Origin: an uncultured Solirubrobacterales bacterium
Lineage (GTDB): Bacteria; Actinomycetota; Thermoleophilia; Solirubrobacterales; Solirubrobacteraceae
Assembly (NCBI GenBank): GCA_963743725.1
Contig: CAVURH010000008.1
Location: 924 to 64,923 of the forward strand
Reading direction: 5' to 3'
DNA length: 64,000 bases
The translations under genes and the position numbers were made by a program. Positions 585-44,356 of the stretch are shown in pieces. Position 1 is the first letter of the stretch, and the number at the start of each line of letters is the position of its first letter. The notes beneath the pieces were generated by a model that was not told the DNA's origin, did not search any database, and saw only the letters and a program-made list of their open reading frames with translations.

Positions 585-1210
585 CCCGAAAAGTCTGCGG
601 GAATCTACCTATCGATAGGTTGGCCGCCACTCTCCCACGGAGCGATCATCCAGCGCCTCGCCGCCCACGTTCTCCCCTCGAGGAGCCGACGAGCTCGGCC
701 GACTCGCTGCGCAGGGCGACAACCGAGAGCCCCCGGTCCGAACTATCGGTCCACCGACCGACGTGCTGGACTGTCGGCTTGCTCGGCACGCTCGCCGATG
801 ACCGCGCCCGGCGCGGCTGTTCCCGTTGCTAACCGGTCGCTGCGCTGGCGACATTCATCTCGCCGAAAGGAGGGCGCTCGCGCCAGCGTGCAGAATCGGC
901 CCGCAATGCCTACGTACGCCTCGGCACGAGCCGTCTCGGAATTGGTGAGGAGCAGGGAGCGCCGGCGATCAGCGCCGAGACGTGCTTTGAGGCTGCCGGG
1001 GATGGTGCGTTCGGAGGTTCGATCGCTGTGGGATGGTGGCTCTCCAGAGGCTGCATCCGGCTGTTGGCCGCTGCCCCTTCGTATTCGCCGTAGCCTCAGT
1101 TGTTCATCGGGCGTCGGCCTGGCCAGGTGGAGCGGGCCGACCACGACGAGGGGAAGAGGGCAGTGGCCCCACCATGCGGGGCGGCGCATGATGGGGCCTT
1201 GGAAGGCCGT

Positions 1211-1807
1211 CTAGACCGTTGCCTTCAGCGCCTCAACCTTGGCGTGGACCTGGTCGCGGAGGTGCGTGCGATGCTCGGCTCGCAGCTTCGCGCGCGCCTC
1301 GCGCTGAGCCGCCCGCTGCGCTTCGTCGGCGGCGGCGATCTCCGCCTCGACGTCGGTCACGCTGCGGCGCTGCACGCGTCCGTCGAGGTGCTCCATCGCG
1401 TAGTCGACCACTTGATCGCTCGGCTCGGACACGGCCGCGAGCAGTACGGTCTGGCCCGGGCGGATGGTGTTCGAGATGGTCGCGAGCGCTGAGCCTTCAT
1501 CGGCAAGGTCGTCCATGTCGAAGAGTGATCCGACTAGAAGCCCGGTGGCGCCCCCGATCAGAATTCCGAATGGTCCTCCGAGGATTCCGACGATCAGCCC
1601 GATGAGGCCGCCCGTCGCTGTCCCCTCGACGTGCGGGTCCTGGACTTGGTCCTTGATTGCGAGCTGGCCGTCCTTATCCCGTTTGACCACGGCGGCCCCT
1701 TGGAGAGAGATCTGGCCTTGTCCGTCCAGTTCCTTCAGCTTGCTGAGGGCTTCGTATGCGGAGTTGTCCTGCTCGAATGAAACCGCGATCACATCGTTGG
1801 CGGTCAT
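1211..1807 (-). CDS. DUF1269-like membrane protein (Gly-rich transmembrane core, coiled C-terminus)
   Basis: 198 aa ORF with a GGLIGLIVGILGGPFGILIGGATGLLVG segment. AAAGGGA Shine-Dalgarno 7 nt before the ATG. The ATGA overlaps the upstream gene's stop. Confidence 0.6.
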   Translation of the reverse strand: MTANDVIAVSFEQDNSAYEALSKLKELDGQGQISLQGAAVVKRDKDGQLAIKDQVQDPHVEGTATGGLIGLIVGILGGPFGILIGGATGLLVGSLFDMDDLADEGSALATISNTIRPGQTVLLAAVSEPSDQVVDYAMEHLDGRVQRRSVTDVEAEIAAADEAQRAAQREARAKLRAEHRTHLRDQVHAKVEALKATV

Positions 1808-2301
1808 GTTCGGTCCCTTTCATGAGTGGCGGGTGTCGTTGATGGTTGATCGTGAAGGTGGGGCGCCGCGTCACGGGCGGGCTCGATGTAGTTCGTGGCA
1901 TTCACGCGCTCGACCGTGATCGCGAGGATCACCCGGCCGGCATCGGCCAGCGCTTCGTCCGTGAGCGGCTCGGGAGGGTCGGTGGCCCGTGTGATCCGCT
2001 GCATGATCCTGGCCGTCGGGATCCCGATATCGGCGGTGAGGATCTCGGCGGGACCCGAGAAGGTCGCGGAGGGGTACGGAGGCTCCTGGCCCATGACGCA
2101 GAGCGAGGCCCATCCATTCCGCCGCACGTCCTGGACCTTGAGCCGTTCGGCGAGGGTCGAGATCAGGAGGCGCTCGCCCTCGCGCGCGAAGTAGACGAGC
2201 GACTGCCTTGGCCTGCCGTCGGGCACAGTTGTGGCAAGCGCACCGACCGGATGGCTGTCGAGGAAGTCCCGCGATGTGTCGGTCAGTACGCCCATGCGCA
2301 C
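1804..2301 (-). CDS. PPOX-class (pyridoxamine 5'-phosphate oxidase-like) flavin/F420-binding protein
   Basis: 165 aa. FLDSHPVGALATTVPDGRPRQSLVYF..LLISTL..KVQDVRRNGWASLCV is typical of the split-barrel PPOX family. The 25 aa C-terminal tail is unconserved-looking. Confidence 0.65.
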   Translation of the reverse strand: MRMGVLTDTSRDFLDSHPVGALATTVPDGRPRQSLVYFAREGERLLISTLAERLKVQDVRRNGWASLCVMGQEPPYPSATFSGPAEILTADIGIPTARIMQRITRATDPPEPLTDEALADAGRVILAITVERVNATNYIEPARDAAPHLHDQPSTTPATHERDRT

Positions 2302-3693: not shown

Positions 3694-5325
3694 GCGGGTG
3701 CTCCTTGAGTCGCGGGGGTCACGGTGATGTTCAGTTGGGTTCGAAGGTCTTCCAGTAGCTCGGGGACCGCCTCCCCGAGGCCGCACCGCCGAAGACGTAG
3801 AAGTCGGGACGCACGAGGACGGCGTGAGCGTGGTGCGAGGCAAGCCACGCGCTGAGGCGCCCATCGAGGTCGCGCACGCCATGGGGCGCGCCGGGGTCCA
3901 GCGACGCGACCGTGGCGTCGAGCGTTTCGAGCAGCTTCCGCTGCCGGCGCGCAAGGCCTTCGAGCGGGTCGCCGTCGGCAACGATGAGCTGAAAGCCGCC
4001 GCCGACGATGTCGTCGAAGCGTCCTCGCCGCCCTGCGCGCTCCACCACTCCCTGAATGCCGAGCGTCCCCGCCAGTGGATCGGGTCCGCCGATTGGCTGG
4101 TGTAGCAGGCCGCCCGTCAACGGCGGGAGCTCGAGCGGCGGCGGCGGACCCGCCGCCCGCAGCATCGCGTCGCGCTCGGCCGCCGCCTTCGGGTCGAGTT
4201 GGCAAAGGATCTTCCCCAGCTCGATCGCAAGCCGGATCACGGCCTCGTTCTGTGGTTGCCGCTCGGCCTCGATCGTGCGCAGCAGCCGCGCGGGCGCGAG
4301 CCCGCGCAGAACCAGGTCGAGCTTCCAAGCCGCGTTCGCCGCGTCGCGCAGGCCAGAGCAGAGGCCCTGGCCCATGAACGGCGGGGTCAAGTGTGCGGCG
4401 TCGCCGACGATCAGCACGCGGCCCTTGCCCATCCGTTCGGTCACCATCGACCGGAATTCGTAAACCGTGCTGCGGGTGAGCGGCCCGTCCTGCGGCCCGT
4501 ACCACTCCTCGAGCAGCGACCACACTCGCTCGGGATCCTCGAAGTCGGACGGCTGCTCGTGCGGGAGCAGCATGAACTCCCAGCGCCGGTGCCGGGGTCC
4601 GCTCTGGACGATCGTCGTGGGGCGCGCCGGGTCGCACCGCTGGCTCGCGATCGGGAGGTGGGCGAGCGCACGCATGTCATTTGGCTCGGCGTCCACGACC
4701 AGCCAGCGCTCCTGAAACCCGAGGTCGCGACGGCTGAGTCCCGCTCGCTTCGCGTACGAACGAGTTCGCGCCGTCGGCCCCGACCAGCCAGCGACTGCGC
4801 ACCGTGCGGTACTCGCCGGTGCTGGCGAGCTGCCGCGGCTCCTCCTGGCTCACCCTGTGAAGCGTCAGCTCGACGTGGTCGCCGAAGTCCTCCAGGCCGT
4901 CGGCGACCCAGCCTCGCTCCACGGTGACGCCCGCTGGCACGCAGGCGTGACGATGGATCGCGGCCTCGAGCTCAGGCTGGAAGAACATGTAGGACGCCTC
5001 CCACCCCGACGGCGCGAGATCCTGGCGGTCGAATCGCAGCAGCGGCTCGCCGTCGGCGCCGATCCACTGGTAATCGTGGACGGGCACCATCTCGTCGGCC
5101 AGCACGTCCGCCAGATCGAGCGCCTGCAGCAGGCGCATGATCTCGTGATCGAGATGCACCGCGCGCGGGAGGCAGTAGATGTCCTGGAAGCGCTCGAACA
5201 CCACCACGCGATGCCCGGCGCGGCCGAGCAGCGCCGCCAGCGTCTGCCCCACCGGCCCGTAGCCGACGATCGCAACGTCTGCCTCGAGCTCTTGATGGGC
5301 GGTCGGACGTGGAGAGATGCGTCAT
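3690..5325 (-). pseudogene. FAD-dependent aromatic-ring hydroxylase (MhpA/PheA-like), three frameshifts
   Basis: The Rossmann motif ADVAIVGYGPVGQTLAALLGRAGH is out of frame with the ATG at 5325. ADGANSFVREASG | LSRRDLGFQERWLVVDAEPND breaks near 4739. GDAAHLTPPFMGQGLCSGLRDA is present. The C-terminal FGGAAS | GEAVPELLEDLRTQL breaks at the run 3773-3776. Net length is 1636 nt, which is 3n+1. The stop TGA overlaps the next gene's ATG. Confidence 0.75.
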
Positions 5326-15873: not shown

Positions 15874-16770
15874 ATGGCGGAGCTACCACCGCCCCCGGAG
15901 GGGATTGTGCTGGCCCACTTCATCGTCTCTGACGATGTCGAGCGCTCTCGGCGCTTCTATGCAGAAGTACTCGGCGGCAGGGTGGCCTTCTCCGGCCCCG
16001 GAGGGCTGACCTACGTCGCGCTATCCAACAGCTGGATCATCACCAACGTCGGGGGCGGCCCGACGGACGACAAGCCTACGGTCACCCTGCAGACACCAGG
16101 CGATCCCGACCGGGTCAGCAGCTTCCTGAATATCCGGGTCAAAGACATCGCGGCCGTGTACGCCGAATGGAGCGCCCGTGGCGCGGAATTTCTGACGCCG
16201 CCCAAGCAGCACCAGTACGAGATCCGCTGCTACATCCGCGATCCCGACGGACACATCATCGAAGTCGGGCAAACCACCGACCCAGAAGGGGACTGGACGC
16301 CCGCTCACTGGCCATCGAGTACGCCCCCAGAGGGGCTTGTGATGACCCACTTCATCGTCTCTGACGATGTCGAGCGCTCTCGGCGCTTCTACACCGAAGT
16401 GCTCGGCGGCAGGGTCGTCTTCTCCGGAAAGCCGTCCGGAGAGCCGACCAATGTCGCACTATCGAACAGCTGGATCGTCATCAGCGTCGGCGGTGGACCG
16501 ACGGACGACAAGCCTACGGTCACCCTGCAGACACCAGGCGATCCCGACCGGGTCAGCAGCTTCCTGAATATCCGGGTCAAAGACATCGCGGCCGTGTACG
16601 CCGAATGGAGCGCCCGTGGCGCGGAATTTCTGACGCCGCCCAAGCAGCACCAGTACGAGATCCGCTGCTACATCCGCGATCCCGACGGACACATCATCGA
16701 AGTCGGGCAAACCACCGACCCAGAAGGGGACTGGACGCCCGCTCAGTGGCCATCCGAGCAGACGACTTGA
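15874..16770 (+). CDS. Two-domain VOC/glyoxalase-family protein (internal tandem duplication)
   Basis: GGAGG lies 6 nt before the ATG at 15874. The two halves are near-identical; each has HFIVSDDVERSRRFY..EVLGGRV..GGGPTDDKPTVTLQTPGDPDRVSSFLNIRVKDIAAVYAEWSARGAEFLTPPKQHQYEIRCYIRDPDGHIIEVGQTTDPEGDWTPA. Confidence 0.85.
   Translation: MAELPPPPEGIVLAHFIVSDDVERSRRFYAEVLGGRVAFSGPGGLTYVALSNSWIITNVGGGPTDDKPTVTLQTPGDPDRVSSFLNIRVKDIAAVYAEWSARGAEFLTPPKQHQYEIRCYIRDPDGHIIEVGQTTDPEGDWTPAHWPSSTPPEGLVMTHFIVSDDVERSRRFYTEVLGGRVVFSGKPSGEPTNVALSNSWIVISVGGGPTDDKPTVTLQTPGDPDRVSSFLNIRVKDIAAVYAEWSARGAEFLTPPKQHQYEIRCYIRDPDGHIIEVGQTTDPEGDWTPAQWPSEQTT
16060..16307. repeat. 248-bp perfect direct repeat, copy 1 (inside the VOC gene)
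   Basis: Base-by-base comparison shows it is identical to 16498..16745, at an offset of 438 bp. Confidence 0.9.
16498..16745. repeat. 248-bp perfect direct repeat, copy 2 (inside the VOC gene)
   Basis: Identical to 16060..16307. A further 46-bp identical block (15914..15959 = 16346..16391) lies at an offset of 432 bp. Confidence 0.9.
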
Positions 16771-27175: not shown

Positions 27176-27856
27176 CTAGGCGGGTTGGGGATCGCTTGCG
27201 AACTCTCGGAACAGCCCGGTTACGACGAACACCGTCTGCTCGGCAATGTCGACGGTGTTGCCCGCTATGCGCTCTAGACAACGCGCGACCAGGATCATGA
27301 ACATCGCCCACTCGCGAAGCTCGAGCTCGTTGCCGACGTCGACCGCGCGATTGATGACCGCGCGGTTTAACAGGTTGATCTCCCCATGCAGGCGAACGAG
27401 GTCCTGAGCCAAGGCGACGTCGCGCGTCGCGAACGCCTCTCTGGACTCAGCCACCTCTGAGTGCGTGAGCTCACCCATGCGCTCGATCGTGTCAAGAATC
27501 TCCCGGTCCTTCGGCGCCTCGTGACCCGACAGCTCCACGAGCTTGGCGATGTTCACGCACTGATCGCCCATCCGCTCGATGCAGCGAATCATGTGCAAGA
27601 GCGCAGCGACGATTCGCAGATCACCGGCGACCGGCGCTTGGCGCGCGAGCAGCGACAGCACGCCCTGGTGTATCTCCAGATAGCGCAGGTCGATTCGGTC
27701 ATCCTCAGCGATCACCGTCCTGGCCAGCCCGACATCTTGGTCGCTGATCGACTCAAGCGCTCGGTCCAGCTGCTCGATCACCATGTCGAGGCCCTCGAGC
27801 GTCTGCTGCTCGAGCTCCTTGAGCGATTCGTGAAACTGGTGGCGCGCTTCCTGCAT
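27176..27856 (-). CDS. phoU: Phosphate signalling complex protein PhoU
   Basis: 226 aa with two PhoU repeats (..DDRIDLRYLEI.. / ..ERMGDQCVNIAK.. / ..LERIAGNTVDIAEQTVF). Confidence 0.9.
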   Translation of the reverse strand: MQEARHQFHESLKELEQQTLEGLDMVIEQLDRALESISDQDVGLARTVIAEDDRIDLRYLEIHQGVLSLLARQAPVAGDLRIVAALLHMIRCIERMGDQCVNIAKLVELSGHEAPKDREILDTIERMGELTHSEVAESREAFATRDVALAQDLVRLHGEINLLNRAVINRAVDVGNELELREWAMFMILVARCLERIAGNTVDIAEQTVFVVTGLFREFASDPQPA

Positions 27857-27929: not shown

Positions 27930-28332
27930 CTACTCGACCGACGTCGGGTCGAGCTTGAGGGCGACGGAGTTGATGCAGTAGCGGTCGCAGCCGTTGGGGC
28001 CGTCGTTGAAGACGTGGCCCAGGTGTCCGCCGCAGGTGGCGCAGGTCACCTCGGTGCGGCGCATGAACAGGCTGCGGTCCTCGTGCAGCTCGACGTTGGC
28101 GCGGTTTGCTGGGTCGGTGAAGCTCGGCCAGCCGGTGCCGGAGTCGAACTTGGTGTCTGAGGAGAAGAGCTCCGCGTCGCAGGCGGCGCAGCGGTAGATG
28201 CCGTCCTCCTTGGTGTGGACGTAGGCGCCGGTGAAGGGGCGCTCGGTCGCCCTTGTGGCGGAGCACCTTGTACGCCTCCGGCGTCAGCTCCTGGCGCCAC
28301 TGCTCGTCGGTCTTCTCGATTCGATTGGTCAT
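27930..28332 (-). pseudogene. msrB: Peptide-methionine (R)-S-oxide reductase MsrB, +1 frameshift near 28248
   Basis: AAAGGAG lies before the ATG at 28332. [28 protein letters not shown] is followed, after one extra G, by [65 protein letters not shown] in another frame. Length is 403 nt, which is 3n+1. Confidence 0.8.
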
Positions 28333-28363
28333 CGTGCTCCTTTCGTGATCCATGTGCACACTT

Positions 28364-28389
28364 TGACCCGGTCGGCGCCCAAACGGTTC
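28364..28389 (-). promoter_or_regulatory. ECF-type promoter upstream of msrB (GAACC-N16-GGTCA)
   Basis: The minus strand reads GAACCgtttgggcgccgaccgGGTCAaag, about 30 nt upstream of the msrB ATG. Confidence 0.5.
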
Positions 28390-28404
28390 ATCACAGTGGT
28401 CTGC

Positions 28405-28431
28405 GAACCTTTTCCGTCGATGACGGGGTCA
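28405..28431 (+). promoter_or_regulatory. ECF-type promoter upstream of the anti-sigma/sigma operon (GAACC-N17-GGTCA)
   Basis: GAACCttttccgtcgatgacggGGTCAcacgagcgATG. The -10 element ends 8 nt before the ATG at 28440. Confidence 0.5.
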
Positions 28432-28439
28432 CACGAGCG

Positions 28440-28713
28440 ATGAGCACTCTCTGGCACGAGCTGCGCTTCCGGCGCGACCACCGGTGGACGCCGCCGACAC
28501 ATGTCCGCCTACCTCGACTCCGACCTGCGGACACAGGCTCGGGCGCGACTCGAGCGCCATACGGCGGAGTGCCCCGAGTGCCGGAGCGTCCTCGACGACC
28601 TGCGACACATGCTCGCCCTGCTCCACAGCGCGCCGCCGCCGGAACCGGTCGCCGACGGGCCGGCGATCGCCACCGCCGTCCTGCGACGGCTGCATGAACC
28701 AGCCGACCACTGA
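28440..28713 (+). CDS. Zinc-finger (zf-HC2, HxxxCxxC) anti-sigma factor, soluble; possible frameshift near 28495
   Basis: The clean ORF 28501..28713 encodes AYLDSDL..RLERHTAECPECRSVL with no TM helix. The upstream ligand expected about 26 aa before the His would be supplied by MSTLWHELRFRRDHRW, which starts at the promoter-proximal ATG at 28440 in another frame. Confidence 0.6.
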
Positions 28714-29287
28714 TCCAGCCCAGGAGCGCGCCCTGATCGCGCGCGCTCGCGCCGGGGACGAGAGCGCCTTCGCGCAGCTCGTGACCGAGCACTCGGCCCG
28801 CGTCTACGGCGCGCTGCGGAGGTTCGGACTGGACCCCCAGGAGGCCGACGAGGTTGCGCAGGAGGTCTTCCTGCGCGCGTGGCGGGGCCTGGCGCGGTTC
28901 GAGGAGCGCTCCCAGTTCTCGACCTGGCTCTACCGGATCGCGTTCAACGAGGCCCAGCGGCGGCTCGCCCGGCGCCCGCCGCCGACGGCGTCTAGCCGGC
29001 CCGGCGACGAGGACGCGATCGCCGCGCTACCAGCCGCGACTGGCACCGGCCCCCAGGCCCGCACACTTGACCGCGAATTCGAGCAGATGCTCGAGCGGGC
29101 GCTGGCGGAGCTGCCCGCCGACCTGCGCGCGGCCGTCGTCCTGCGCGACCTCGAAGGGCTCTCGACCGAGGAGGCCGCGGCGGTGGCCGGCGTCCGGCAG
29201 GCCGCGCTCAAGAGCCGCCTTCATCGCGGGCGGATGCAGCTCCGTGCGCTGCTCGAGCCGTACCTCCGGCTCGAGCAGGCAAACTGA
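28694..29287 (+). CDS. ECF (group IV) RNA polymerase sigma factor
   Basis: 197 aa. Region 2 is AFAQLVTEHSARVYGALRRFGLDPQEADEVAQEVFLRAWRGLARFEERSQFSTWLYRIAFNEA. Region 4 is LRDLEGLSTEEAAAVAGVRQAALKSRLHRGR. The start overlaps the anti-sigma gene by 20 nt. Confidence 0.9.
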   Translation: MNQPTTDPAQERALIARARAGDESAFAQLVTEHSARVYGALRRFGLDPQEADEVAQEVFLRAWRGLARFEERSQFSTWLYRIAFNEAQRRLARRPPPTASSRPGDEDAIAALPAATGTGPQARTLDREFEQMLERALAELPADLRAAVVLRDLEGLSTEEAAAVAGVRQAALKSRLHRGRMQLRALLEPYLRLEQAN

Positions 29288-29292
29288 CGGAC

Positions 29293-29313
29293 CGACTCGT
29301 CCCTAGCGAGTCG
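29293..29313. terminator. 7-bp hairpin between convergent sigma and msrA genes
   Basis: cgactcg pairs with cgagtcg across a 7-nt loop that contains the msrA stop codon. Confidence 0.3.
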
Positions 29314-29842
29314 ACGGCACCTCGATCGTGACGCCACAGGCCGCGTAACCCGAGCGCTCGAAGTAGCGCTGGTGGTACTCCTCGGCGCGGTAGAAGGTCG
29401 TCGCCGGGACGATCTCGGTCACGATCGGCTTGACGAGCGACTCCTGCTCGGACTCGCGCGTGGCGAGCGCGAGGCGCTCCTGCTCCGGATCGTGGAAGAA
29501 GATCGCGGAGCGGTACTGGCTCCCGAGATCCCAACCCTGACGGTTCAGGGTGGTCGGGTTGTGGATGTGCCAGAAGGTGTCGAGCAGCTGCCGGTAGCTC
29601 ACCGTCGCCGGGTCGAACACGACCTCGACGGCCTCGGCGTGGCCAGTCGCGCCGCCACACACCTGCTCGTAGGTCGGATCAGCGGTCGTGCCGCCGGTGT
29701 AGCCGACGGTCACGTCGAGCACGCCGTCGAGCTCGCGGAAGGCAGCCTCGACGCCCCAGAAGCAGCCGGCGGCGAACGTCGCGCGCTGGGCGCCGTCGGG
29801 GCGTGCCGAGGTGACGGGGAGGTCATCACTCAAGTGGGTCAT
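29303..29842 (-). CDS. msrA: Peptide-methionine (S)-S-oxide reductase MsrA
   Basis: 179 aa from the ATG at 29842, with AAAGGA 5 nt upstream. [48 protein letters not shown]. Confidence 0.9.
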
Positions 29843-29882
29843 TGGGTCCTTTCGATCAAAGGCAGGAAGCATTCACCCCAAT

Positions 29883-29909
29883 AGACCCTCGGCACGCCCC
29901 AAACGGTTC
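29883..29909 (-). promoter_or_regulatory. ECF-type promoter upstream of msrA (GAACC-N17-GGTCT)
   Basis: The minus strand reads GAACCgtttggggcgtgccgagGGTCTatt. It shares the extended GAACCGTTTGGG(G)CG block with the msrB promoter. Confidence 0.5.
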
Positions 29910-29946
29910 TTGCTGGCGCCCAGCGACGATCATTGGCGCGCTCGAA

Positions 29947-30864
29947 TTACGACCGGGCGCGCTGAACGGATCCGTTCGCTTCGACCATAGCCTCGCGCAA
30001 CGCCTGCTTGAAGGACCGTGGCTGGAAGTCGAAGAGCGCCATTCCGGACGGGTCTGTGACCGTCGTGTCGGTGGAGAGCCCTTCGATCAATGGCCTCGCA
30101 ACGCCCGCGTCGACCGGTGTGATCAGGCCGATCCAATGCGACGAAAGCCATGGTGTGAGCAGCGGAACCGGAATGCGTGGGCGTCGTCGCAATCCCAACG
30201 CATCGGCCATCTGGTCGAGCATCTGGCCATAGGTGAGTACCTCTGCCGAGCCGATCTGGATCTCACGGGAGCGCGTCTCGGGTATAAGAGGGCAGTCGAT
30301 TAGGTACCGCAGCACATCGCTGATCGCGATGGCCTGCGTGGGCGTGGCCAGCCAAGACGGGGCAAGCATCACCGGTAGCCGCTCCACAAGGGAGCGCAAG
30401 GTTCGGTAGCTCTCGGAGCCGGCGCCGACGACCATGCCGGCACGGAACCAGGTCAGTGGTGGTCCCTCGTCGCGCAGGATCTCACCGACGCGCAGTCGCG
30501 ACCGCAGATGCTGAGATCCAGGGCGATCCCCGAGACCGCCGAGGTACACGACCCGGTCGATCCCACTGGCGGTCGCGAAGCGGGCGAAGTTCGACGCGGC
30601 GCTGGCGTCGCGCTGTTCATAGTCCGAGCTGCCTCCCCGACCCATCGAGTGAACGAGGTAGTAGGCCGTCGTGTAGCCGTCGCCGATCGCGCTCAGCGAG
30701 CTCGGATCGAGCATGTCGCCCCGATGTACGGTGACAACTGGATCGAAGCTAACCCGGCTCGGGTCGCGCGCAACGCACCCGACCTGCTCGCCGAGCGCAT
30801 GAAGCTCGCTCACCAGTCGGCTGCCTATGTAACCGGAGGCGCCGGTAACGAGCGCACGGACCAT
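29947..30864 (-). CDS. NAD(P)-binding NmrA/atypical SDR family protein
   Basis: 305 aa. N-terminal MVRALVTGASGYIGSRLVSEL. Confidence 0.8.
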   Translation of the reverse strand: MVRALVTGASGYIGSRLVSELHALGEQVGCVARDPSRVSFDPVVTVHRGDMLDPSSLSAIGDGYTTAYYLVHSMGRGGSSDYEQRDASAASNFARFATASGIDRVVYLGGLGDRPGSQHLRSRLRVGEILRDEGPPLTWFRAGMVVGAGSESYRTLRSLVERLPVMLAPSWLATPTQAIAISDVLRYLIDCPLIPETRSREIQIGSAEVLTYGQMLDQMADALGLRRRPRIPVPLLTPWLSSHWIGLITPVDAGVARPLIEGLSTDTTVTDPSGMALFDFQPRSFKQALREAMVEANGSVQRARS

Positions 30865-30938
30865 GCAGGATGAGCAGCATACGCTGCTGGCGTGCGCGCG
30901 CGGTCAAATCAGACGCGGCGCGCGGTAAACCCAGCGGG

Positions 30939-32903
30939 TCACACCGTCAGCGCCGTACGGAGCTCCGCGGGGAGCTCGGCGATGTCCTCGGGCTGCGTCG
31001 GACGGCGTGCCGCAATCGCCGAGCCCGGCCGCGCTCGCTGGCTCGATGGCCGACAGGCCCGGCCGTTGGCGAGGATCACCCCGTCGCTGCAGTGGGCCTC
31101 GACCACTCCGTCGCCGAACTGCTCTTCATAGAGACGCGCGTAAATGCCACCCTCGGCGAGCAGTTCGTCGTGGGTTCCGCGCTCGACGATCATGCCGCGC
31201 TCGATCGCGAAGATCACGTCAGCGTTACGGATCGTCGATAGCCGGTGGGCGATCGCGATCGTGGTGCGGCGTTGCATCAGCGCCTCCAGCGCCCGCTGCA
31301 CGACGCGCTCGCTCTCGGTGTCCAGCGCCGAGGTGGCCTCATCAAGGATCAGGATCGGCGGGTCCTCCAGGATCACCCGGGCGATTGCCAGCCGCTGGCG
31401 CTCACCGCCCGAGAACCGGTACCCGCGTTCCCCGACCACCGTGTTGTATCCGTCCTCGAGAGCGATGATGCGGTCGTGAATGAAGGCGGCCTTCGCGGCG
31501 GCCACAACCTCCTCCTCGGTCGCGTCCGGCCGCCCGTAGCTGATGTTCTCGCGCACCGTGCCGCCGAACAGGTAGCTCTCCTGGGTCACCACGCCGACCG
31601 CGCCCGCGATCGTCGCGGAGCTCAGGTCGCGCACGTCGTGACCGTCGATCTTGACGGCCCCGCGCTCGACGTCGTAGAGCCTCGGAACCAGGTAGGAGAT
31701 CGTCGTCTTGCCCGCGCCGGATGGCCCTACCAGCGCCGCGAGCTGCCCCGGCGCGACGAGCATCGACACGTCTCGCAACGCCTCTTCCGGCGCCGCCGGC
31801 CCGCCGTCCTCACCAGCGCCATAGCGGAACGACACCTGCTCGAGCGCCACCTCTCCTCGGATCTCGGTCGGGGCCAGGCTGAGCGCATCCTCGCGGTCGC
31901 TGATCCGCGGGCGAAGGTCGATCAGCTCGAAGATCCGGCCGAACAGCGCCAGCGACGACTGAACGTCAACCGAGACCTGCAGCAGCTGGTTGATCGGGAT
32001 CAGCAGCCGGCTCTGCAGGGTCGTGAACGCCACCAGCGTCCCCGCCGACAGGTCGCCCTTCGTGCCCTGCAGACCGGCCACCAGATACACGAGCGCGGGG
32101 CTGATCCCGAAGAACGCCTGGGTAACGGCGAAGAACGAGCGACCCACCATCGCCTGGCGGACCTGCAGCTCGGCCTGGTTGGCGTTCTCGACGCGGTAGC
32201 GGTCGACCTCGTGCGCCTGTCGGCCGAACACCTTGGACAACAGAATTCCCGACACCGACAACGTCTCCTGGGTGATCGAACCCATCGACGCAAGCGAAGC
32301 CTGGGCCTCGCTCCGGGCTCTGCGCCGCGCGCGTCCGACTCGACGACTGAACAGTACGAATACCGGCGTGACGGCCAGCGATATGGCCGTCAGCAGCGGC
32401 GAGAGCACCAGCATCGCCACCACTGACGAGACCAGCGTGACCAGGTTGCTGACAACCGACGACGCGGTCGACGTGATCGTCGTCTGCACACCGCCGACGT
32501 CGTTGGCCAGCCTGGACTGAACCTCTCCGCTGCGAGTGGCCGTGTAGAACGCCAGCGAAAGCTTTTCGAGGTGCTCGAACAGCCGGTCGCGCAGCTCCTG
32601 CAGCACACGGTTGCCCACGACCTCGGTCAGATACACCTGGGCTATGTTCAGGATCCCGTTGATGATCGGGATCGCGATCAGCGCAGCCACCAGCGGGTAC
32701 AGCGCGCCGAGGTCGGGGCCACCCTGAACGAACAGAGCCTTGTCGAACACCTGGCGGACCAGCAGCGCGCCGATCACGCTCAGCACCGACGTCGTCACGA
32801 TCGTGAGGATGATCAGCGCCAGCGCACCGCGATGGGGGCGAAACAGGCGCACGACTCTGCGGCCGAGCCTCGGCGGCTCGGCTTGCAAAACGGAGGCAAT
32901 CAT
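30939..32903 (-). CDS. ABC exporter, fused permease/ATPase (MsbA/MdlB-like)
   Basis: 654 aa. Six-TM N-domain. Walker A GPSGAGKTT, signature FSGGERQRLAIAR, Walker B ILILDEATSALD. About 45 aa of unconserved C-terminal tail. Confidence 0.9.
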   Translation of the reverse strand: MIASVLQAEPPRLGRRVVRLFRPHRGALALIILTIVTTSVLSVIGALLVRQVFDKALFVQGGPDLGALYPLVAALIAIPIINGILNIAQVYLTEVVGNRVLQELRDRLFEHLEKLSLAFYTATRSGEVQSRLANDVGGVQTTITSTASSVVSNLVTLVSSVVAMLVLSPLLTAISLAVTPVFVLFSRRVGRARRRARSEAQASLASMGSITQETLSVSGILLSKVFGRQAHEVDRYRVENANQAELQVRQAMVGRSFFAVTQAFFGISPALVYLVAGLQGTKGDLSAGTLVAFTTLQSRLLIPINQLLQVSVDVQSSLALFGRIFELIDLRPRISDREDALSLAPTEIRGEVALEQVSFRYGAGEDGGPAAPEEALRDVSMLVAPGQLAALVGPSGAGKTTISYLVPRLYDVERGAVKIDGHDVRDLSSATIAGAVGVVTQESYLFGGTVRENISYGRPDATEEEVVAAAKAAFIHDRIIALEDGYNTVVGERGYRFSGGERQRLAIARVILEDPPILILDEATSALDTESERVVQRALEALMQRRTTIAIAHRLSTIRNADVIFAIERGMIVERGTHDELLAEGGIYARLYEEQFGDGVVEAHCSDGVILANGRACRPSSQRARPGSAIAARRPTQPEDIAELPAELRTALTV

Positions 32904-32980
32904 GGCCGCGAGCCTAGCCCACCACGTTGCCAGGGATCACTGCTGATTGGCCGCCGGCTTTGCGGTGTTACCGTCGGGGG

Positions 32981-34573
32981 ATGGCCGAGGTCGATAGCCG
33001 CGGCACCGATCGGAATGCGACGCATCTGATGTCACTGGCCTCGACGGATCGCGAACCGAATCGATGGGCGGTGCTGGCCCTGCTCGGCGTTGCGCAGCTG
33101 ATGGTGGTGCTGGACGCGACGATCGTGACCATCGCGATTCCTTCGGCCCAGAATGCGCTGCATTTCTCTACCGAGAGCCGGCAGTGGATCGTCACCGCGT
33201 ACGCGCTGGCCTTCGGCAGCCTATTGCTGCTGGGTGGCAAGCTCGGTGATCTGTTCGGGCGCAAGTGGACGCTGATCGCCGGCCTGGTCGGGTTCTCGAT
33301 CGCCTCGGCGATCGGCGGTCTGGCCCAGTCCTTCGGCGTACTCGTGGCCGCTCGAACGCTCCAGGGGGCATTCGGCGCGCTGCTCGCACCCTCGGCGCTG
33401 GGGTTGCTGACGGTTACGTTCGAGGGATCTCCTGACCGGCCCAAGGCGTTCGGGATCTTCGGTGCGATCGCGGGCGGTGGCGCCTCGCTCGGGCTGATCC
33501 TTGGGGGCGCGCTCACCCAAGTCTTGTCCTGGCGCTGGTGCCTGTATGTCAACGTTGTGATCGCAGTGCCCACGACGATCGTGGCGTTGCGCCTGCTGGT
33601 CAATCACCGCGCACCCGACCGGGACCCGATCGACATCCCCGGGGTTCTCACCTCAGCGCTCGGCCTGTTCGCGCTGGTGTACGGGTTCTCCAACGCCGAG
33701 ACGCACTCCTGGAGTGCAACGGCCACGATCGTGGCGCTCGTCGCCTGCCCAGTGCTCCTGACGGCCTTTGTGCTGATCGAGCGCCGAGCCAAGCATCCGT
33801 TGCTGCCCCTGCACATCATCTGGGACCGGGCGCGCGGCGGCGCGTACACCACGATCGCGCTGGCCGGCGCGGGCACCCTTGCCGTATTTCTGTTTCTCTC
33901 CTACTTCCTGCAGCAGCAGCTCGGCCTTTCGCCGCTCACCACCGGACTCGCGTTCCTCCCGCTGACCGGCATTCTGGTGGTCACCTCGACCACCGTGCAG
34001 ACCCGCGTGATCCAACGCACCGGGGTCAAGCCGCTGGTACTTGCTGGCACGACGCTCGGGGCGATCGGGATGTTCCTGTTCACGCGCCTGACGCCCGGCT
34101 CCAGCTACGCCGGCAATGTCCTTCCCGGTCTGCTCGTCCTCGGCGTCGGGATGGGATGCATCTTCGCGCCGGCGTTCTCAACGGCGACCCTGGGTGTGGA
34201 GGGACGCGAGGCCGGGGTCGCCTCGGCGATGGTCAACACCTCCCAACAGGTCGGCGGGTCGGTCGGCACCTCCCTACTGAGCACGATCTTCGCCAGCGCA
34301 GTGGCCAGCTACACGTCCAGTCACCTTCGCACACCCGGCCTGGCTAACGCCGCGGCCGTCCACGGCTACACCACGGCGTTCTGGTGGGCGGTCGGAATCT
34401 TCGCTCTCGGCTTCGTTCTGGCGTTGGTGATCCTGCCGGGCCGGGCCAAGCCCCGCGTGCCCACCCTTCGGGCTGCGCTCGCCCGTCTCGCGATCGGCAA
34501 CTGCCAGTACTTCGAGGCGGCGAAGCGCGCCCGGCATGAGCCTGACGCTACGACGGGTGCTGGGCCGCGATGA
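32981..34573 (+). CDS. MFS transporter, DHA2 (EmrB/QacA, 14-TMS) family
   Basis: LLGVAQLMVVLDATIVTIAIPS and LLLGGKLGDLFGRKW motifs. The start could be 32981 or 33029. Confidence 0.85.
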   Translation: MAEVDSRGTDRNATHLMSLASTDREPNRWAVLALLGVAQLMVVLDATIVTIAIPSAQNALHFSTESRQWIVTAYALAFGSLLLLGGKLGDLFGRKWTLIAGLVGFSIASAIGGLAQSFGVLVAARTLQGAFGALLAPSALGLLTVTFEGSPDRPKAFGIFGAIAGGGASLGLILGGALTQVLSWRWCLYVNVVIAVPTTIVALRLLVNHRAPDRDPIDIPGVLTSALGLFALVYGFSNAETHSWSATATIVALVACPVLLTAFVLIERRAKHPLLPLHIIWDRARGGAYTTIALAGAGTLAVFLFLSYFLQQQLGLSPLTTGLAFLPLTGILVVTSTTVQTRVIQRTGVKPLVLAGTTLGAIGMFLFTRLTPGSSYAGNVLPGLLVLGVGMGCIFAPAFSTATLGVEGREAGVASAMVNTSQQVGGSVGTSLLSTIFASAVASYTSSHLRTPGLANAAAVHGYTTAFWWAVGIFALGFVLALVILPGRAKPRVPTLRAALARLAIGNCQYFEAAKRARHEPDATTGAGPR

Positions 34574-41894: not shown

Positions 41895-44250
41895 TTATTC
41901 GCGGGCGATCATGGCGGCGGCCTCGCGCTCGAGGTCGACGTAGGGCTCGCCGCTGACGTCGACGGCGCCAAAGTGGATTGTGCCGCCGGTGAACGGCCAG
42001 GGCCGCTGGCCGGGGTAGTCGTAGGTGATCGCGTGGAGGCTACGCCCGACGGTCAGCCCGGATCCGGTCAGGCCGAAGGTCGCGGGCTGGGTCTTGATTT
42101 GCCCCTCGCCGACCTTGTCCTCGCCGTAGTAGAGCGACAGAGTCCCCGTGCAGACACCCGGCTTGCCCTCGCTGTCCTTGACGAACTCGGCCGACAGGAG
42201 CAGGTTATCGCCGACCGGCACGTCCTCGGTCGCGTCGATTTTCTGCTCGAGCATGCCGACGAAGTTGTAGACGTAGTGCAGCCGGTTGTCCTTGACGTAG
42301 AGCGTGTGCCCGCCGAAGTGCGAGCCGTGCGCGAACAGCACCCCCTGTGCCCCCGGCGCCGGGATGTCGACCCACATTCCGATGATGTAGTCGCGGTTGC
42401 GGACATTGACGGCTAGTGCCTCCGGGACCTCGGCTACGCCGGGGAAGTAGCGGTAGCGGTCGCGCGGGCTGGTGATCTGGGGACGCGGGGTGGTGATGAT
42501 CTCGACCGGCGAGCGGTCATCGAGCGGGAATGCCCCGTTGGCGCCTGCTTCGGAGAACCACAGGTTGATCAGCTCGCGCAGCTTCTCGGGGTGCTCTGCC
42601 GCGAGGTCGTGGAGCTCGGCGCGGTCGGTCTCGACGTTGTAGAGCTCCCATGTGTCTTCGTTGAAGTGGCTCCAGCCGGCGACCGTGGGGTGGGTGGTTA
42701 CGGCTTTCCATCCCTCGTGCCAGATCGCCCGCGAGCCGAGCATCGAGTAGAACTGCGTCGATCGCGCGTTTGGGATCGAGGCGTCGTTGAAGCTGTACCG
42801 CATGCTGATCCCGTCGAAGCTGCTCTGCACGTGCCCCTTGATCGTCTCCGGCGGCTCGACCCCGAGGCAGTCGAGGACGGTCGGCACGATGTCGATCGCG
42901 TGGTGGTACTGGTGGCGGATCTCGCCCTTGGCCTCGATCTCCTTCGGCCAGGAGATGATGCACGGATCGCAGCTGCCGCCGTTGTACTCGTAGCGCTTCC
43001 ACATCTTGAACGGCGTGTTGAACGCCATCGCCCAGCCGTTGGGGTAGTGGTTGTAGGTCTTCTCGCTCCCGAGCTCGTCGATCATCGCCAGGTTCGTCTC
43101 GATGTCATCGGGAATCTGGTTGATGAACTTGTTCTCGTTCAGCGATCCGTTCGGCCCACCCTCGCCGCTGGCCCCATTGTCCGAGACCACCACGATGATC
43201 GTGTTCTCGAGCTGCTCGGTCTCCTCCAGATACGCGAGCAGGCGACCGATCTGCCAGTCAGCGTGGGCGAGGAACCCCGCGTAGACCTCGGCCATGCGAC
43301 AGAACAGCCTGCGCTCGTCGTCGGACAGCGAACCCCACGGGCGCGTGAAGTCAAGCTGTGGGAACGGCTCGTCCGCCCGGGCCCTTGCGATCCTGTGGGG
43401 TCCCGATCGGGTTGAGCGCCGGGAGCTCCGTGTCCTCGGGGACGATCCCGAGCTTCTTCTGGCGCTCGAGCGTCTGCTCGCGCATCGCCTCATAGCCGAT
43501 GTCGAACCGGCCCTTGTACTTCTCGATCCACTCTCTGGGTACCTGGTGGGGGGCGTGGCACGCGCCCGGCGTGTAGTAGAGGAAGAACGGCTTGTCCGGG
43601 GCCACCGCCTTCGCGTCCATGATGAACTCGAGCGCCCTGTCAGTCAGATCCACCGTCAAGTGGTAGCCGTCCTCGGGCTGGGAGGGCTGGTCGACCGGAT
43701 GGTTGTCATAGACCAGGTCCGGATGCCACTGGTCGGTCTCCGCGCCGAGGAAACCGTAGAAGCGCTCGAACCCTCGCCCTGTCGGCCAGTTGCGCCGGGT
43801 CGAGGCGAGATGCATCTCGTCGGTCGGGCACAGATGCCACTTCCCGGTCATGTACGTGTTCCAGCCGAGCTCGCCGAGGATCTCCGGGAGCATCCCGTTC
43901 TCCGGCGGGATCGTGCCGCTCGCGTTCGGGAACCCGATCGCGGCCTCGGTGATGCACGCCATGCTGTTGCGCGTGTGATTACGACCCGTCAGCAGGCACG
44001 AACGTGTCGGCGAACACAGCGCCGTGGTGTGCCACTGCGTATATCGGACCCCGCTGGCGGCGATCCGGTCGATGTTCGGCGTCTCCACCGGGCCGCCGTA
44101 ACAGCCGACCGCCGCGAAACCAACGTCATCGAGCACGATATACACCACATTCGGCGCTCCGTCCGGAGCCCTCGGCGGCTCGAACGGCGCCCAATCAGGA
44201 ACCGAGTCGCGAATATCGACGTTGACGACTCCCTTGAATGGCTTGCCCAT
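41895..44250 (-). pseudogene. Arylsulfatase (formylglycine-dependent, AtsA-like), +1 frameshift near 43374
   Basis: The N-terminal part has NVVYIVLDDVGF and CSPTRSCLLTGRN (CxPxR), ending ..IGTPQDRKGPG. It continues as DEPFPQLDFTRPWGSLSDDERRLFCRMAEVYAGFLAHAD.. in ORF 41895..43493. Length is 2356 nt, which is 3n+1. Confidence 0.85.
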
Positions 44251-44356
44251 GAACGGCCTCGATTCGTCTGCGCGTCTACCCGAGAGATGTGACCCCTTCA
44301 CACTCCCGGGTCACCGGTGGCCGAGCATCATCCAGATCGGGTGATCTCTCCAAGCA

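Follow-up and report, generated by a model that had tools for sequence, protein, structure and literature searches.

Control of the methionine sulfoxide reductase (msr) genes by extracytoplasmic function (ECF) sigma factors is already known in Streptomyces, Neisseria, and Pseudomonas. In Streptomyces, msrA and msrB are among the targets of SigR, whose promoter is GGAAT-N18-GTT; the SigF proteins of Caulobacter and Azospira also belong to the ECF factors that control methionine sulfoxide reductases, and FroI, the anti-sigma partner of Pseudomonas aeruginosa FroR, is a membrane protein rich in Met and Cys. The promoters of Mycobacterium tuberculosis SigL, like the msrB promoter described below, have a TGAACC −35 element. 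Here, we analyzed a 64,000-nucleotide stretch of DNA, referred to as the window, from an uncultured Solirubrobacterales bacterium (GenBank assembly GCA_963743725.1, contig CAVURH010000008.1, positions 924 to 64,923 of the forward strand). The window region 27930–29913 probably constitutes a self-contained stress module of about 2 kb, consisting of an ECF sigma factor, a zinc-finger anti-sigma factor, msrB, and msrA. The comparison with related loci strongly supports the view that one predicted ECF-type promoter, used three times, would unite an autoregulated anti-sigma/sigma operon with msrB and msrA in a compact regulon.

The SigR–RsrA pair of Streptomyces coelicolor (ECF12), a switch of the mycothiol/thiol-oxidation type, resembles the module in its small cytoplasmic anti-sigma factor with an H-x3-C-x2-C motif, its autoregulated sigma factor, and its homeostatic loop, which repairs the damage that triggers it. 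The spacing of 26 residues between Cys11 and His37 of RsrA equals that between His14 and His40 here (PMC2893595). In contrast to SigR–RsrA, the gene order is reversed, with the anti-sigma gene first, and the first ligand is an invariant His, so that the Cys11–Cys44 trigger disulfide of RsrA cannot form. The promoter, GAACC-N16/17-GGTC, also differs, and only three promoters are visible in the window, whereas the SigR regulon has more than 100 genes. The SigL–RslA pair of M. tuberculosis shares the HHCC zinc site (RslA ligands H25, H50, C54, and C57) as well as the sequence C-P-E-C-R. When RslA is oxidized, a disulfide forms between the proximal cysteines, zinc leaves, and the affinity for SigL falls 8-fold (PMC2877774). 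However, RslA is membrane-anchored and encoded after sigL, the SigL targets are polyketide and cell-envelope genes rather than msr genes, and the sigma factor of the module is closer to AlgU/RpoE than to SigL among solved structures.

The Neisseria sigmaE (Ecf)–MseR system has a tiny, experimentally defined regulon comprising its own operon and msrA/msrB, and its zinc-binding anti-sigma (ZAS) protein is co-transcribed with the autoregulated sigma factor (PMC2893595). It differs in being proteobacterial, in the position of the anti-sigma gene downstream of rpoE in a six-gene operon, in the RsrA-like Cys4 of MseR, and in its target, a fused MsrA/MsrB protein (PMC2893595). P. aeruginosa FroR–FroI is likewise an ECF/anti-sigma pair, which raises msrB and msrPQ expression on HOCl and whose anti-sigma factor was proposed to be an oxidized sensor (bioRxiv 10.1101/2022.02.01.478687), but it belongs to another taxon, controls another regulon (froABCD), and is not known to include a minimal protein consisting of the ZAS alone.

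The module needs no new mechanism; it is a well-conserved, if ordinary, sort of stress switch whose gene order is unusual. As far as can be judged from sequence, it is set apart by its Solirubrobacterales lineage, the anti-sigma-first order, the predicted leaderless autoregulated operon, the putatively soluble HHCC protein that consists of an anti-sigma domain (ASD) only, and the presence of an msr gene inside the operon in most members. Soluble anti-sigma factors were predicted in just 10 ECF groups in the Casas-Pastor 2021 ECF classification, the main text of which mentions no msr-linked group (PMC7826278).

Three copies of one predicted promoter

The motif GAACC-N{16,17}-GGTCW had exactly three matches in the window, which has a G+C content of 67%, compared with 0.48 expected from shuffles. 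All three stood exactly where the original prediction had placed them, at 28364–28389 (minus strand), 28405–28431 (plus strand), and 29883–29909 (minus strand), each in the correct orientation. The window was then scored with a position weight matrix (PWM) trained only on related loci L009–L053, leaving out the close relatives. The predicted ECF promoter of msrB (P-msrB, 28364..28389), which reads tGAACCGTTT-N12-GGGTCA, had the best score of the window at 31.6 bits, followed by that of msrA (P-msrA, 29883..29909; aGAACCGTTT-N13-GGGTCT) at 24.5 bits and the predicted autoregulatory promoter of the anti-sigma/sigma operon (P-anti, 28405..28431; GCGAACCTTTT-N12-GGGTCA) at 24.1 bits. The next-best score of 8.4 bits came from the operon site at another spacer and the next independent site reached 8.2 bits, while the maxima of ten random 64-kb sequences ranged from 8.0 to 16.7 bits. 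Since the three sites scored 24–32 bits versus 8.2 bits for the next independent site, they are genuine members of the predicted promoter family, and the window has no fourth such site.

The three copies differ in their distance from the genes that they face. From P-msrB, the motif end lies 31 nt and GGGTC 32 nt before ATG 28332, with the Shine-Dalgarno (SD) sequence GAAAGGAG in between, and from P-msrA the corresponding distances to ATG 29842 are 40 and 41 nt, with the SD sequence GAAAGGAC in between. By contrast, the motif end of P-anti is 8 nt from ATG 28440 (9 nt from the C of GGGTC), without an SD sequence. The divergent −35 elements of P-msrB and P-anti (28385–28389 and 28405–28409) are separated by just 15 nt. 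An extended block common to the two msr copies had also been proposed, and GAACCGTTTGGG was indeed found in both of them and not in the operon copy of the window; in the relatives, it was conserved only as GAACCGTTT, and the GGG(G)CG portion was not kept. Upstream of their SD-led starts, msrB and msrA also have in-frame ATG codons at 28353 and 29872 (both minus strand), 11 nt past the −10 elements of P-msrB and P-msrA. Close relatives vary in whether they keep or have lost these codons, which may represent leaderless starts that are either alternative or vestigial.

Genes of the module

Pfam and NCBIfam agreed on the originally proposed identities of all four genes. The msrB gene, encoding a methionine-R-sulfoxide reductase, lies on the minus strand at 27930..28332 (ATG 28332, stop 27930–27932) and specifies 133 aa if a 1-nt insertion near 28248–28250 is read through. 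This read-through protein matched Pfam SelR with 172 bits and TIGR00357 with 178.8 bits (cutoff 113), the DNA frame of the window itself being broken by the insertion. The anti-sigma gene of the zf-HC2/ZAS type occupies 28440..28713 on the plus strand (ATG 28440, stop 28711–28713), with a product of 90 aa if a 1-nt insertion near 28496/28497 is read through. It is followed on the same strand by the ECF sigma gene at 28694..29287 (197 aa; ATG 28694, stop 29285–29287), the ATG of which sits 20 nt inside the 3′ end of the anti-sigma gene. This overlap, which had been noted before, suggests that anti-sigma and sigma would be translationally coupled. Convergent with the sigma gene, msrA (methionine-S-sulfoxide reductase) extends over 29303..29842 on the minus strand (179 aa; ATG 29842, stop 29303–29305); its product matched Pfam PMSR with 212.6 bits and TIGR00401 with 201.3 bits (cutoff 108.1), and contains the MsrA active-site motif GCFWG (AAGCFWGVE in the translation). 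Between the sigma gene and msrA, a possible hairpin folded no better than shuffled sequence.

Motif and gene linkage in related loci

Fifty-three Solirubrobacterales loci (L001–L053; 438,659 bp in total) with sigma identities of 61–91% were compared. They contained 122 copies of GAACC-N14-16-GGGTC, whereas 4.1 ± 1.8 were expected from Markov-1 simulations, an approximately 30-fold enrichment. As many as 111 of the 122 copies pointed towards, and stood immediately before, one of three genes: the anti-sigma gene in 33 cases, msrB in 43 (about 8 of them look-alikes within the coding region), and msrA in 35, the element preceding msrA in at least 35 loci. The consensus was TGTGCGAACCtTT...cGGGTCAgAC-N5-ATG for P-anti, the −35 element of which was GAATC in eight loci, and cTGAACCGTTT...cGGGTC(A/T)A for P-msrB and P-msrA. 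Both the enrichment and the placement of the motif bear out the proposal that msrB, msrA, and the operon would form one regulon under a single ECF-type promoter.

The genes for sigma, anti-sigma, MsrB, and MsrA were linked in nearly all of L001–L052. With most of its close relatives, the window shared nucleotide homology only over 27930–29913, from the msrB stop codon to the −35 element of P-msrA, and this homology stopped right at the P-msrA element (29909–29913). Since the flanks differ while this region stays homologous, the module behaves as a unit. In the window, it is flanked by phoU (27176–27856) on one side and an NmrA/epimerase-like gene (29947–30864) on the other. In one relative (L002), the sequence past the msrA promoter joins straight onto window positions 33052–34000, so that the epimerase-like gene and an ABC transporter (30939–32903), both within 29914–33051, are an insertion relative to that locus.

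The motif can also be viewed as an imperfect inverted repeat (GAACC...GGgTC) and hence as the operator of a dimeric DNA-binding protein instead of a promoter, as GGGTC is only one position off GGTTC, the reverse complement of GAACC, and the two blocks are about two helical turns apart. However, the G that breaks the symmetry is essentially invariant in the 111 sites, whose two flanks also differ from each other (TGAACCGTTT vs. cGGGTC(A/T)A). Every copy points to its gene, divergent genes have two copies rather than one common site, and the start codon is fixed 9 nt past the second block. Furthermore, local signal scans of the module region found no sigma70-type promoter for such an operator to control, and no intrinsic terminator or Rfam family either. 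GAAC and GTC blocks at this spacing are the classic −35 and −10 elements of ECF promoters, and we consider an operator extremely improbable.

If the motif is a promoter, its copies could still be read mainly by another sigma factor, such as a paralogue or an ECF factor for global oxidative stress, with the adjacent sigma gene as just one of the targets. Paralogous sigma factors with about 65% identity do stand beside the same motif, without msr genes, in L050 and L051, and ECF paralogues can overlap in promoter specificity. Against this, the motif, sigma, anti-sigma, and msr genes co-occur as a unit over the range of 61–91% sigma identity while the flanks vary, and autoregulation by the adjacent sigma factor is the usual rule among ECF systems. 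This alternative is thus quite improbable, and the adjacent sigma factor is the best candidate for the protein that would recognize the three sites.

The two paralogous loci and a third, divergent one have features of their own. In L050 and L051 (2900–5000), the paralogous ECF sigma gene has no anti-sigma or msr genes nearby and a thioredoxin gene upstream; the GAACCGTT-N-GGGGTC form of the motif lies just past the sigma gene and precedes a frameshifted open reading frame (ORF) that was judged by eye to be DUF427-like. In L053, a divergent relative without msr genes, two further motif copies (1000–1900, minus strand) precede tandem paralogous genes with leaderless starts, which encode small proteins of unassigned function with a hydrophobic, Ala-rich segment.

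A predicted leaderless operon

The operon transcript had been predicted to be nearly leaderless from ATG 28440, and the geometry of the related loci agrees with this. In 46 of 51 loci, GAA(C/T)C-N15-17-GGTC was followed by an in-frame start codon 6–10 nt past the C of GGTC, and the distance was exactly 9 nt in 36 of the 46, as it is in the window. The start codon was ATG in 40 of these loci, GTG in five, and TTG in one. Because the distance from the −10 element to the start codon is nearly fixed at 9 nt, a leaderless mRNA is supported, and on these in silico grounds the anti-sigma/sigma transcript would start at or next to ATG 28440. Since the alignment with homologues begins at residue 1 of the read-through anti-sigma protein, its first 20 residues are real coding sequence. 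Many public entries for the protein (P0218–P0240) have 70 aa instead of 90 and begin at an internal ATG that corresponds to window position 28501, since the leaderless start is systematically overlooked in gene prediction.

In soil metatranscriptomes, all four genes are covered by contigs of close relatives; these contigs are unstranded and may contain DNA. Anecdotally, the contig of one relative ends at 28438 and that of another at 29877, near the predicted transcription starts. Such contigs suggest that the module may be expressed in the relatives.

The sigma factor

The sigma protein contains regions 2 and 4 only (PF04542, Sigma70_r2, 65.1 bits; PF08281, Sigma70_r4_2, 51.2 bits), and with 92.3 bits for TIGR02937 (cutoff 42.9) it falls among the ECF (group 4) sigma-70 factors. 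None of the NCBIfam equivalog models reached its cutoff; the best was PRK11922 with 137.7 bits versus a cutoff of 204, while the SigH/SigR-type model TIGR02947 gave 72 bits versus 251. The nearest solved structures were AlgU (8z6g, 6in7) and E. coli sigmaE/RpoE, with an E value of 1e-30 compared with 3e-8 for SigL. By sequence, it is a generic RpoE-like ECF factor, and homologues with 85–96% identity occur in many metagenome-assembled genomes of Solirubrobacteraceae.

The anti-sigma factor

The window anti-sigma protein matched PF13490 (zf-HC2) with 31.9 bits (cutoff 22.2). Members of the family have about 90 aa and no extra domain. The HxxxCxxC motif and the lack of a transmembrane helix had both been reported before; the former is present as RHTAECPEC, and no membrane segment was apparent in the alignment or the structural model, no transmembrane predictor having been run. 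Intact homologues of 90 aa exist, one of them with 96% identity. His14, His40, Cys44, and Cys47 were invariant in alignments of 52 and of 55 family members, and are the predicted zinc ligands of an HHCC site like that of RslA and ChrR. In the 52-sequence alignment, W16, S22, and D26 were likewise invariant or nearly so, with the consensus rFrrDHRWap..MS.YLDGEL....R.R.ErH..eC.eC, and the cysteine region followed the pattern R-H-x-x-E-C-x-E-C-R. The H-x3-C-x2-C motif, the upstream His ligand, and the zf-HC2 match place the protein in ZAS class I, while the His-His-Cys-Cys arrangement with a proximal CxxC gives it an RslA-like HHCC pattern at the sequence level. A strictly conserved sensor Met was considered but is not supported: Met21, although suggestive, is present in 45 of the 52 sequences, the remainder having A, I, L, V, or S at this position.

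The best sequence match in the PDB was RslA (3hug_B; E value 1.4e-3), which covered residues 12–80, that is, the whole ASD, with an identical C-P-E-C-R; a sequence-level match to RsiW was also seen. An AlphaFold model of the homologue P0121 had four helices and a pLDDT of 81.4. Membership in the RsrA family was rejected, since TIGR03988 gave 27.3 bits versus a cutoff of 62.5 and the Cys11 position is occupied by an invariant His (DHRW block). Among the residues E39, E40, L45, and E46, which determine the redox behavior of RsrA (PMC3177212), the Glu that precedes the first Cys is the only one retained. The original likening of the protein to RsrA thus stands for its size, its ZAS motif, and the absence of a membrane segment, but fails for the family model, Cys11, and three of the four redox determinants; at best, the likeness is one of function, and RslA is a closer model. 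Because RslA is the best solved relative and has the same HHCC ligands and C-P-E-C-R, we favor RslA-type oxidant sensing by the CxxC pair as the probable mode of action.

The regulon could nevertheless be right and the anti-sigma factor no oxidant sensor, its zinc being structural and the sigma factor being freed by ClpXP-type proteolysis through a degron, by a partner protein, or just by a shift in the ratio of sigma to anti-sigma. The zinc site is indeed HHCC rather than the CHCC of RsrA, with just one of the four residues E39, E40, L45, and E46 matched, and the internal promoter found in most relatives yields a predicted msrB–sigma transcript without the anti-sigma gene, so that the ratio of the two proteins may itself be a control point. 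In Neisseria, sigmaE/MseR controls msrAB, and neither H2O2 nor diamide nor singlet oxygen elicited a response from it (PMC2893595). On the other hand, the protein is an ASD alone without a separate sensor domain, the output genes repair oxidized protein, which fits an oxidant signal, and the closest solved relative RslA, with HHCC and C-P-E-C, loses zinc and affinity on oxidation (PMC2877774). A non-sensing anti-sigma factor therefore seems somewhat unlikely, and sensing by the CxxC pair remains the favored reading.

Frameshifts in the window copy

As written, the window DNA has neither an intact anti-sigma gene from ATG 28440 nor an intact msrB, which the earlier reading had overlooked. In msrB, one extra base disrupts the frame after codon 28 (aag ggc G acc gag) near 28248–28250, and in the anti-sigma gene another does so after codon 19 (ccg ccg A cac atg) near 28496/28497. 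Both extra bases were absent from five close relatives (L001, L002, L004, L005, and L006 for msrB), from the 98.07% identical contig L081, and from soil and peat metagenome contigs as well as metatranscriptome contigs. L081 differs from the window by nine 1- to 2-nt indels in 4.7 kb; its msrB and anti-sigma genes are intact, and it has frameshifts of its own in the sigma gene, msrA, and phoU. A window-wide GC3 frame-switch scan was too noisy, so pairs of overlapping ORFs were tested with Pfam instead, in addition to the comparison with this contig. The Pfam tests revealed two more window genes split into overlapping out-of-frame ORFs that match halves of one domain, both on the minus strand: an FAD_binding_3 monooxygenase at 3734–5321 (profile positions 1–170 and 229–347) and a sulfatase at 41898–44310 (profile positions 1–202 and 200–301).

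Frameshifts spread over the window in this way point to an indel-prone, long-read assembly. Since other window genes are likewise split and the L081 frameshifts fall in other genes, both the msrB and the anti-sigma insertions are most likely assembly errors. A search of public sequencing runs for the exact strain found none, the best word share being 0.26. Genuine decay of the module in this strain, with real frameshifts in msrB and the anti-sigma gene, a constitutively active sigma factor, and loss of MsrB, would fit the absence of both insertions from all relatives examined and their position outside homopolymer runs. It is nonetheless very unlikely, given that no fewer than two further genes of the window show the same kind of split and that nine 1- to 2-nt indels in 4.7 kb of a 98%-identical assembly, with frameshifts elsewhere, are the signature of uncorrected long reads. 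Elsewhere in the window, at 15890–16735, a tandem duplication (period about 435 nt, units 91–96% identical) lies inside a two-domain ORF of the glyoxalase/VOC family, and may be either a recent internal duplication or an assembly artefact.

Gene orders

The order anti-sigma before sigma, also part of the original prediction, was kept in nearly all related loci except the rearranged L037–L039. In the window and its closest relatives (L001–L008, sigma identity ≥76%), msrB diverges from the anti-sigma/sigma operon, while most other loci have anti-sigma, msrB, and sigma on one strand and a convergent msrA. The latter loci contain a second promoter copy right past the anti-sigma stop codon, with a predicted leaderless msrB ATG 8–9 nt after GGGTC, and this putative internal promoter should give msrB–sigma transcripts without the anti-sigma gene. 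Because anti-sigma–msrB–sigma is the widespread order, the arrangement in the window appears to be derived, msrB and its promoter having been inverted as one piece.

In L009–L052, the msrB–sigma spacer (just 5′ of locus position 4001–4012) also contains a GC-rich hairpin followed by an invariant GGTATAAC box. The box can be written (G)GCGG-TATAAC-CGCC, with TATAAC exactly 6 nt before the sigma start codon, and is not present in the window. It may serve a leaderless transcript of sigma alone as a −10 element of the housekeeping type, or the structure may be a small RNA hairpin.

Discussion

In silico analysis gave the gene identities, the promoter copies, how these are conserved, oriented, and spaced, and the leaderless geometry, and from these we infer how the switch would operate. 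The sigma factor would be co-transcribed, and probably translationally coupled, with the 90-aa cytoplasmic zinc-finger anti-sigma factor encoded just 5′ of it. In the off state, the ASD would bind the sigma factor, with zinc held by His14, His40, Cys44, and Cys47 presumably stabilizing the domain. Oxidants, with disulfide stress, peroxide, and hypochlorite-type species as candidates, would attack the CxxC thiolates, so that zinc is released and the complex loosened as described for M. tuberculosis RslA. The freed sigma factor would then take RNA polymerase to the three (T)GAACC(G)TTT-N12/13-GGGTC promoters of its own operon, msrB, and msrA, with transcription expected to start at the predicted sites. 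The promoter of the operon would provide both positive autoregulation and resynthesis of the inhibitor, and the output would be the repair of both stereoisomers of protein methionine sulfoxide.

Several observations weigh against this scheme. The anti-sigma protein has no equivalent of the RsrA Cys11 and lacks three of the four RsrA redox-determinant residues, and a Foldseek comparison of its model with the PDB returned no match. An HHCC site can have a structural role only, which has been suggested for that of ChrR (PMC2877774). The paralogous sigma factors beside the same motif in L050 and L051 make cross-recognition possible, some contigs labelled as metatranscriptome run across the promoter region that is expected to be untranscribed, maybe through DNA carry-over, and if both frameshifts were real, the window copy would be without a functional anti-sigma factor and MsrB.

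A more elaborate design can be imagined, in which the module would act as a closed methionine-oxidation homeostat. HOCl- or chloramine-type oxidants would inactivate the anti-sigma factor via the CxxC thiolates, via Met21 in the sigma-binding helix, or via both, and MsrA and MsrB together with thioredoxin would help to restore it. In the ancestral anti-sigma–msrB–sigma order, the internal promoter would make sigma without anti-sigma and thereby create a positive-feedback amplifier. To our knowledge, such a design has not been described for any ECF system, and we regard it as distinctly unlikely for the module.

We know of no sigma regulon in the Solirubrobacterales, an abundant and almost unstudied order of soil actinobacteria, for which the module would provide a clean assignment of promoter, sigma factor, and anti-sigma factor that is tractable by experiment. 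It would also extend to one more, independent lineage the connection between ECF sigma factors and methionine sulfoxide repair that recurs among bacteria. The position of msrB inside the operon in some members and outside it in others amounts to a natural experiment on feedback wiring, and the shortened database entries are a warning that gene callers often miss a leaderless start. With its predicted three-promoter mini-regulon, a putative sensor of 90 aa consisting of the ASD only, and a probably leaderless, autoregulated operon, the module is a compact orthogonal switch that could be characterized or reused.

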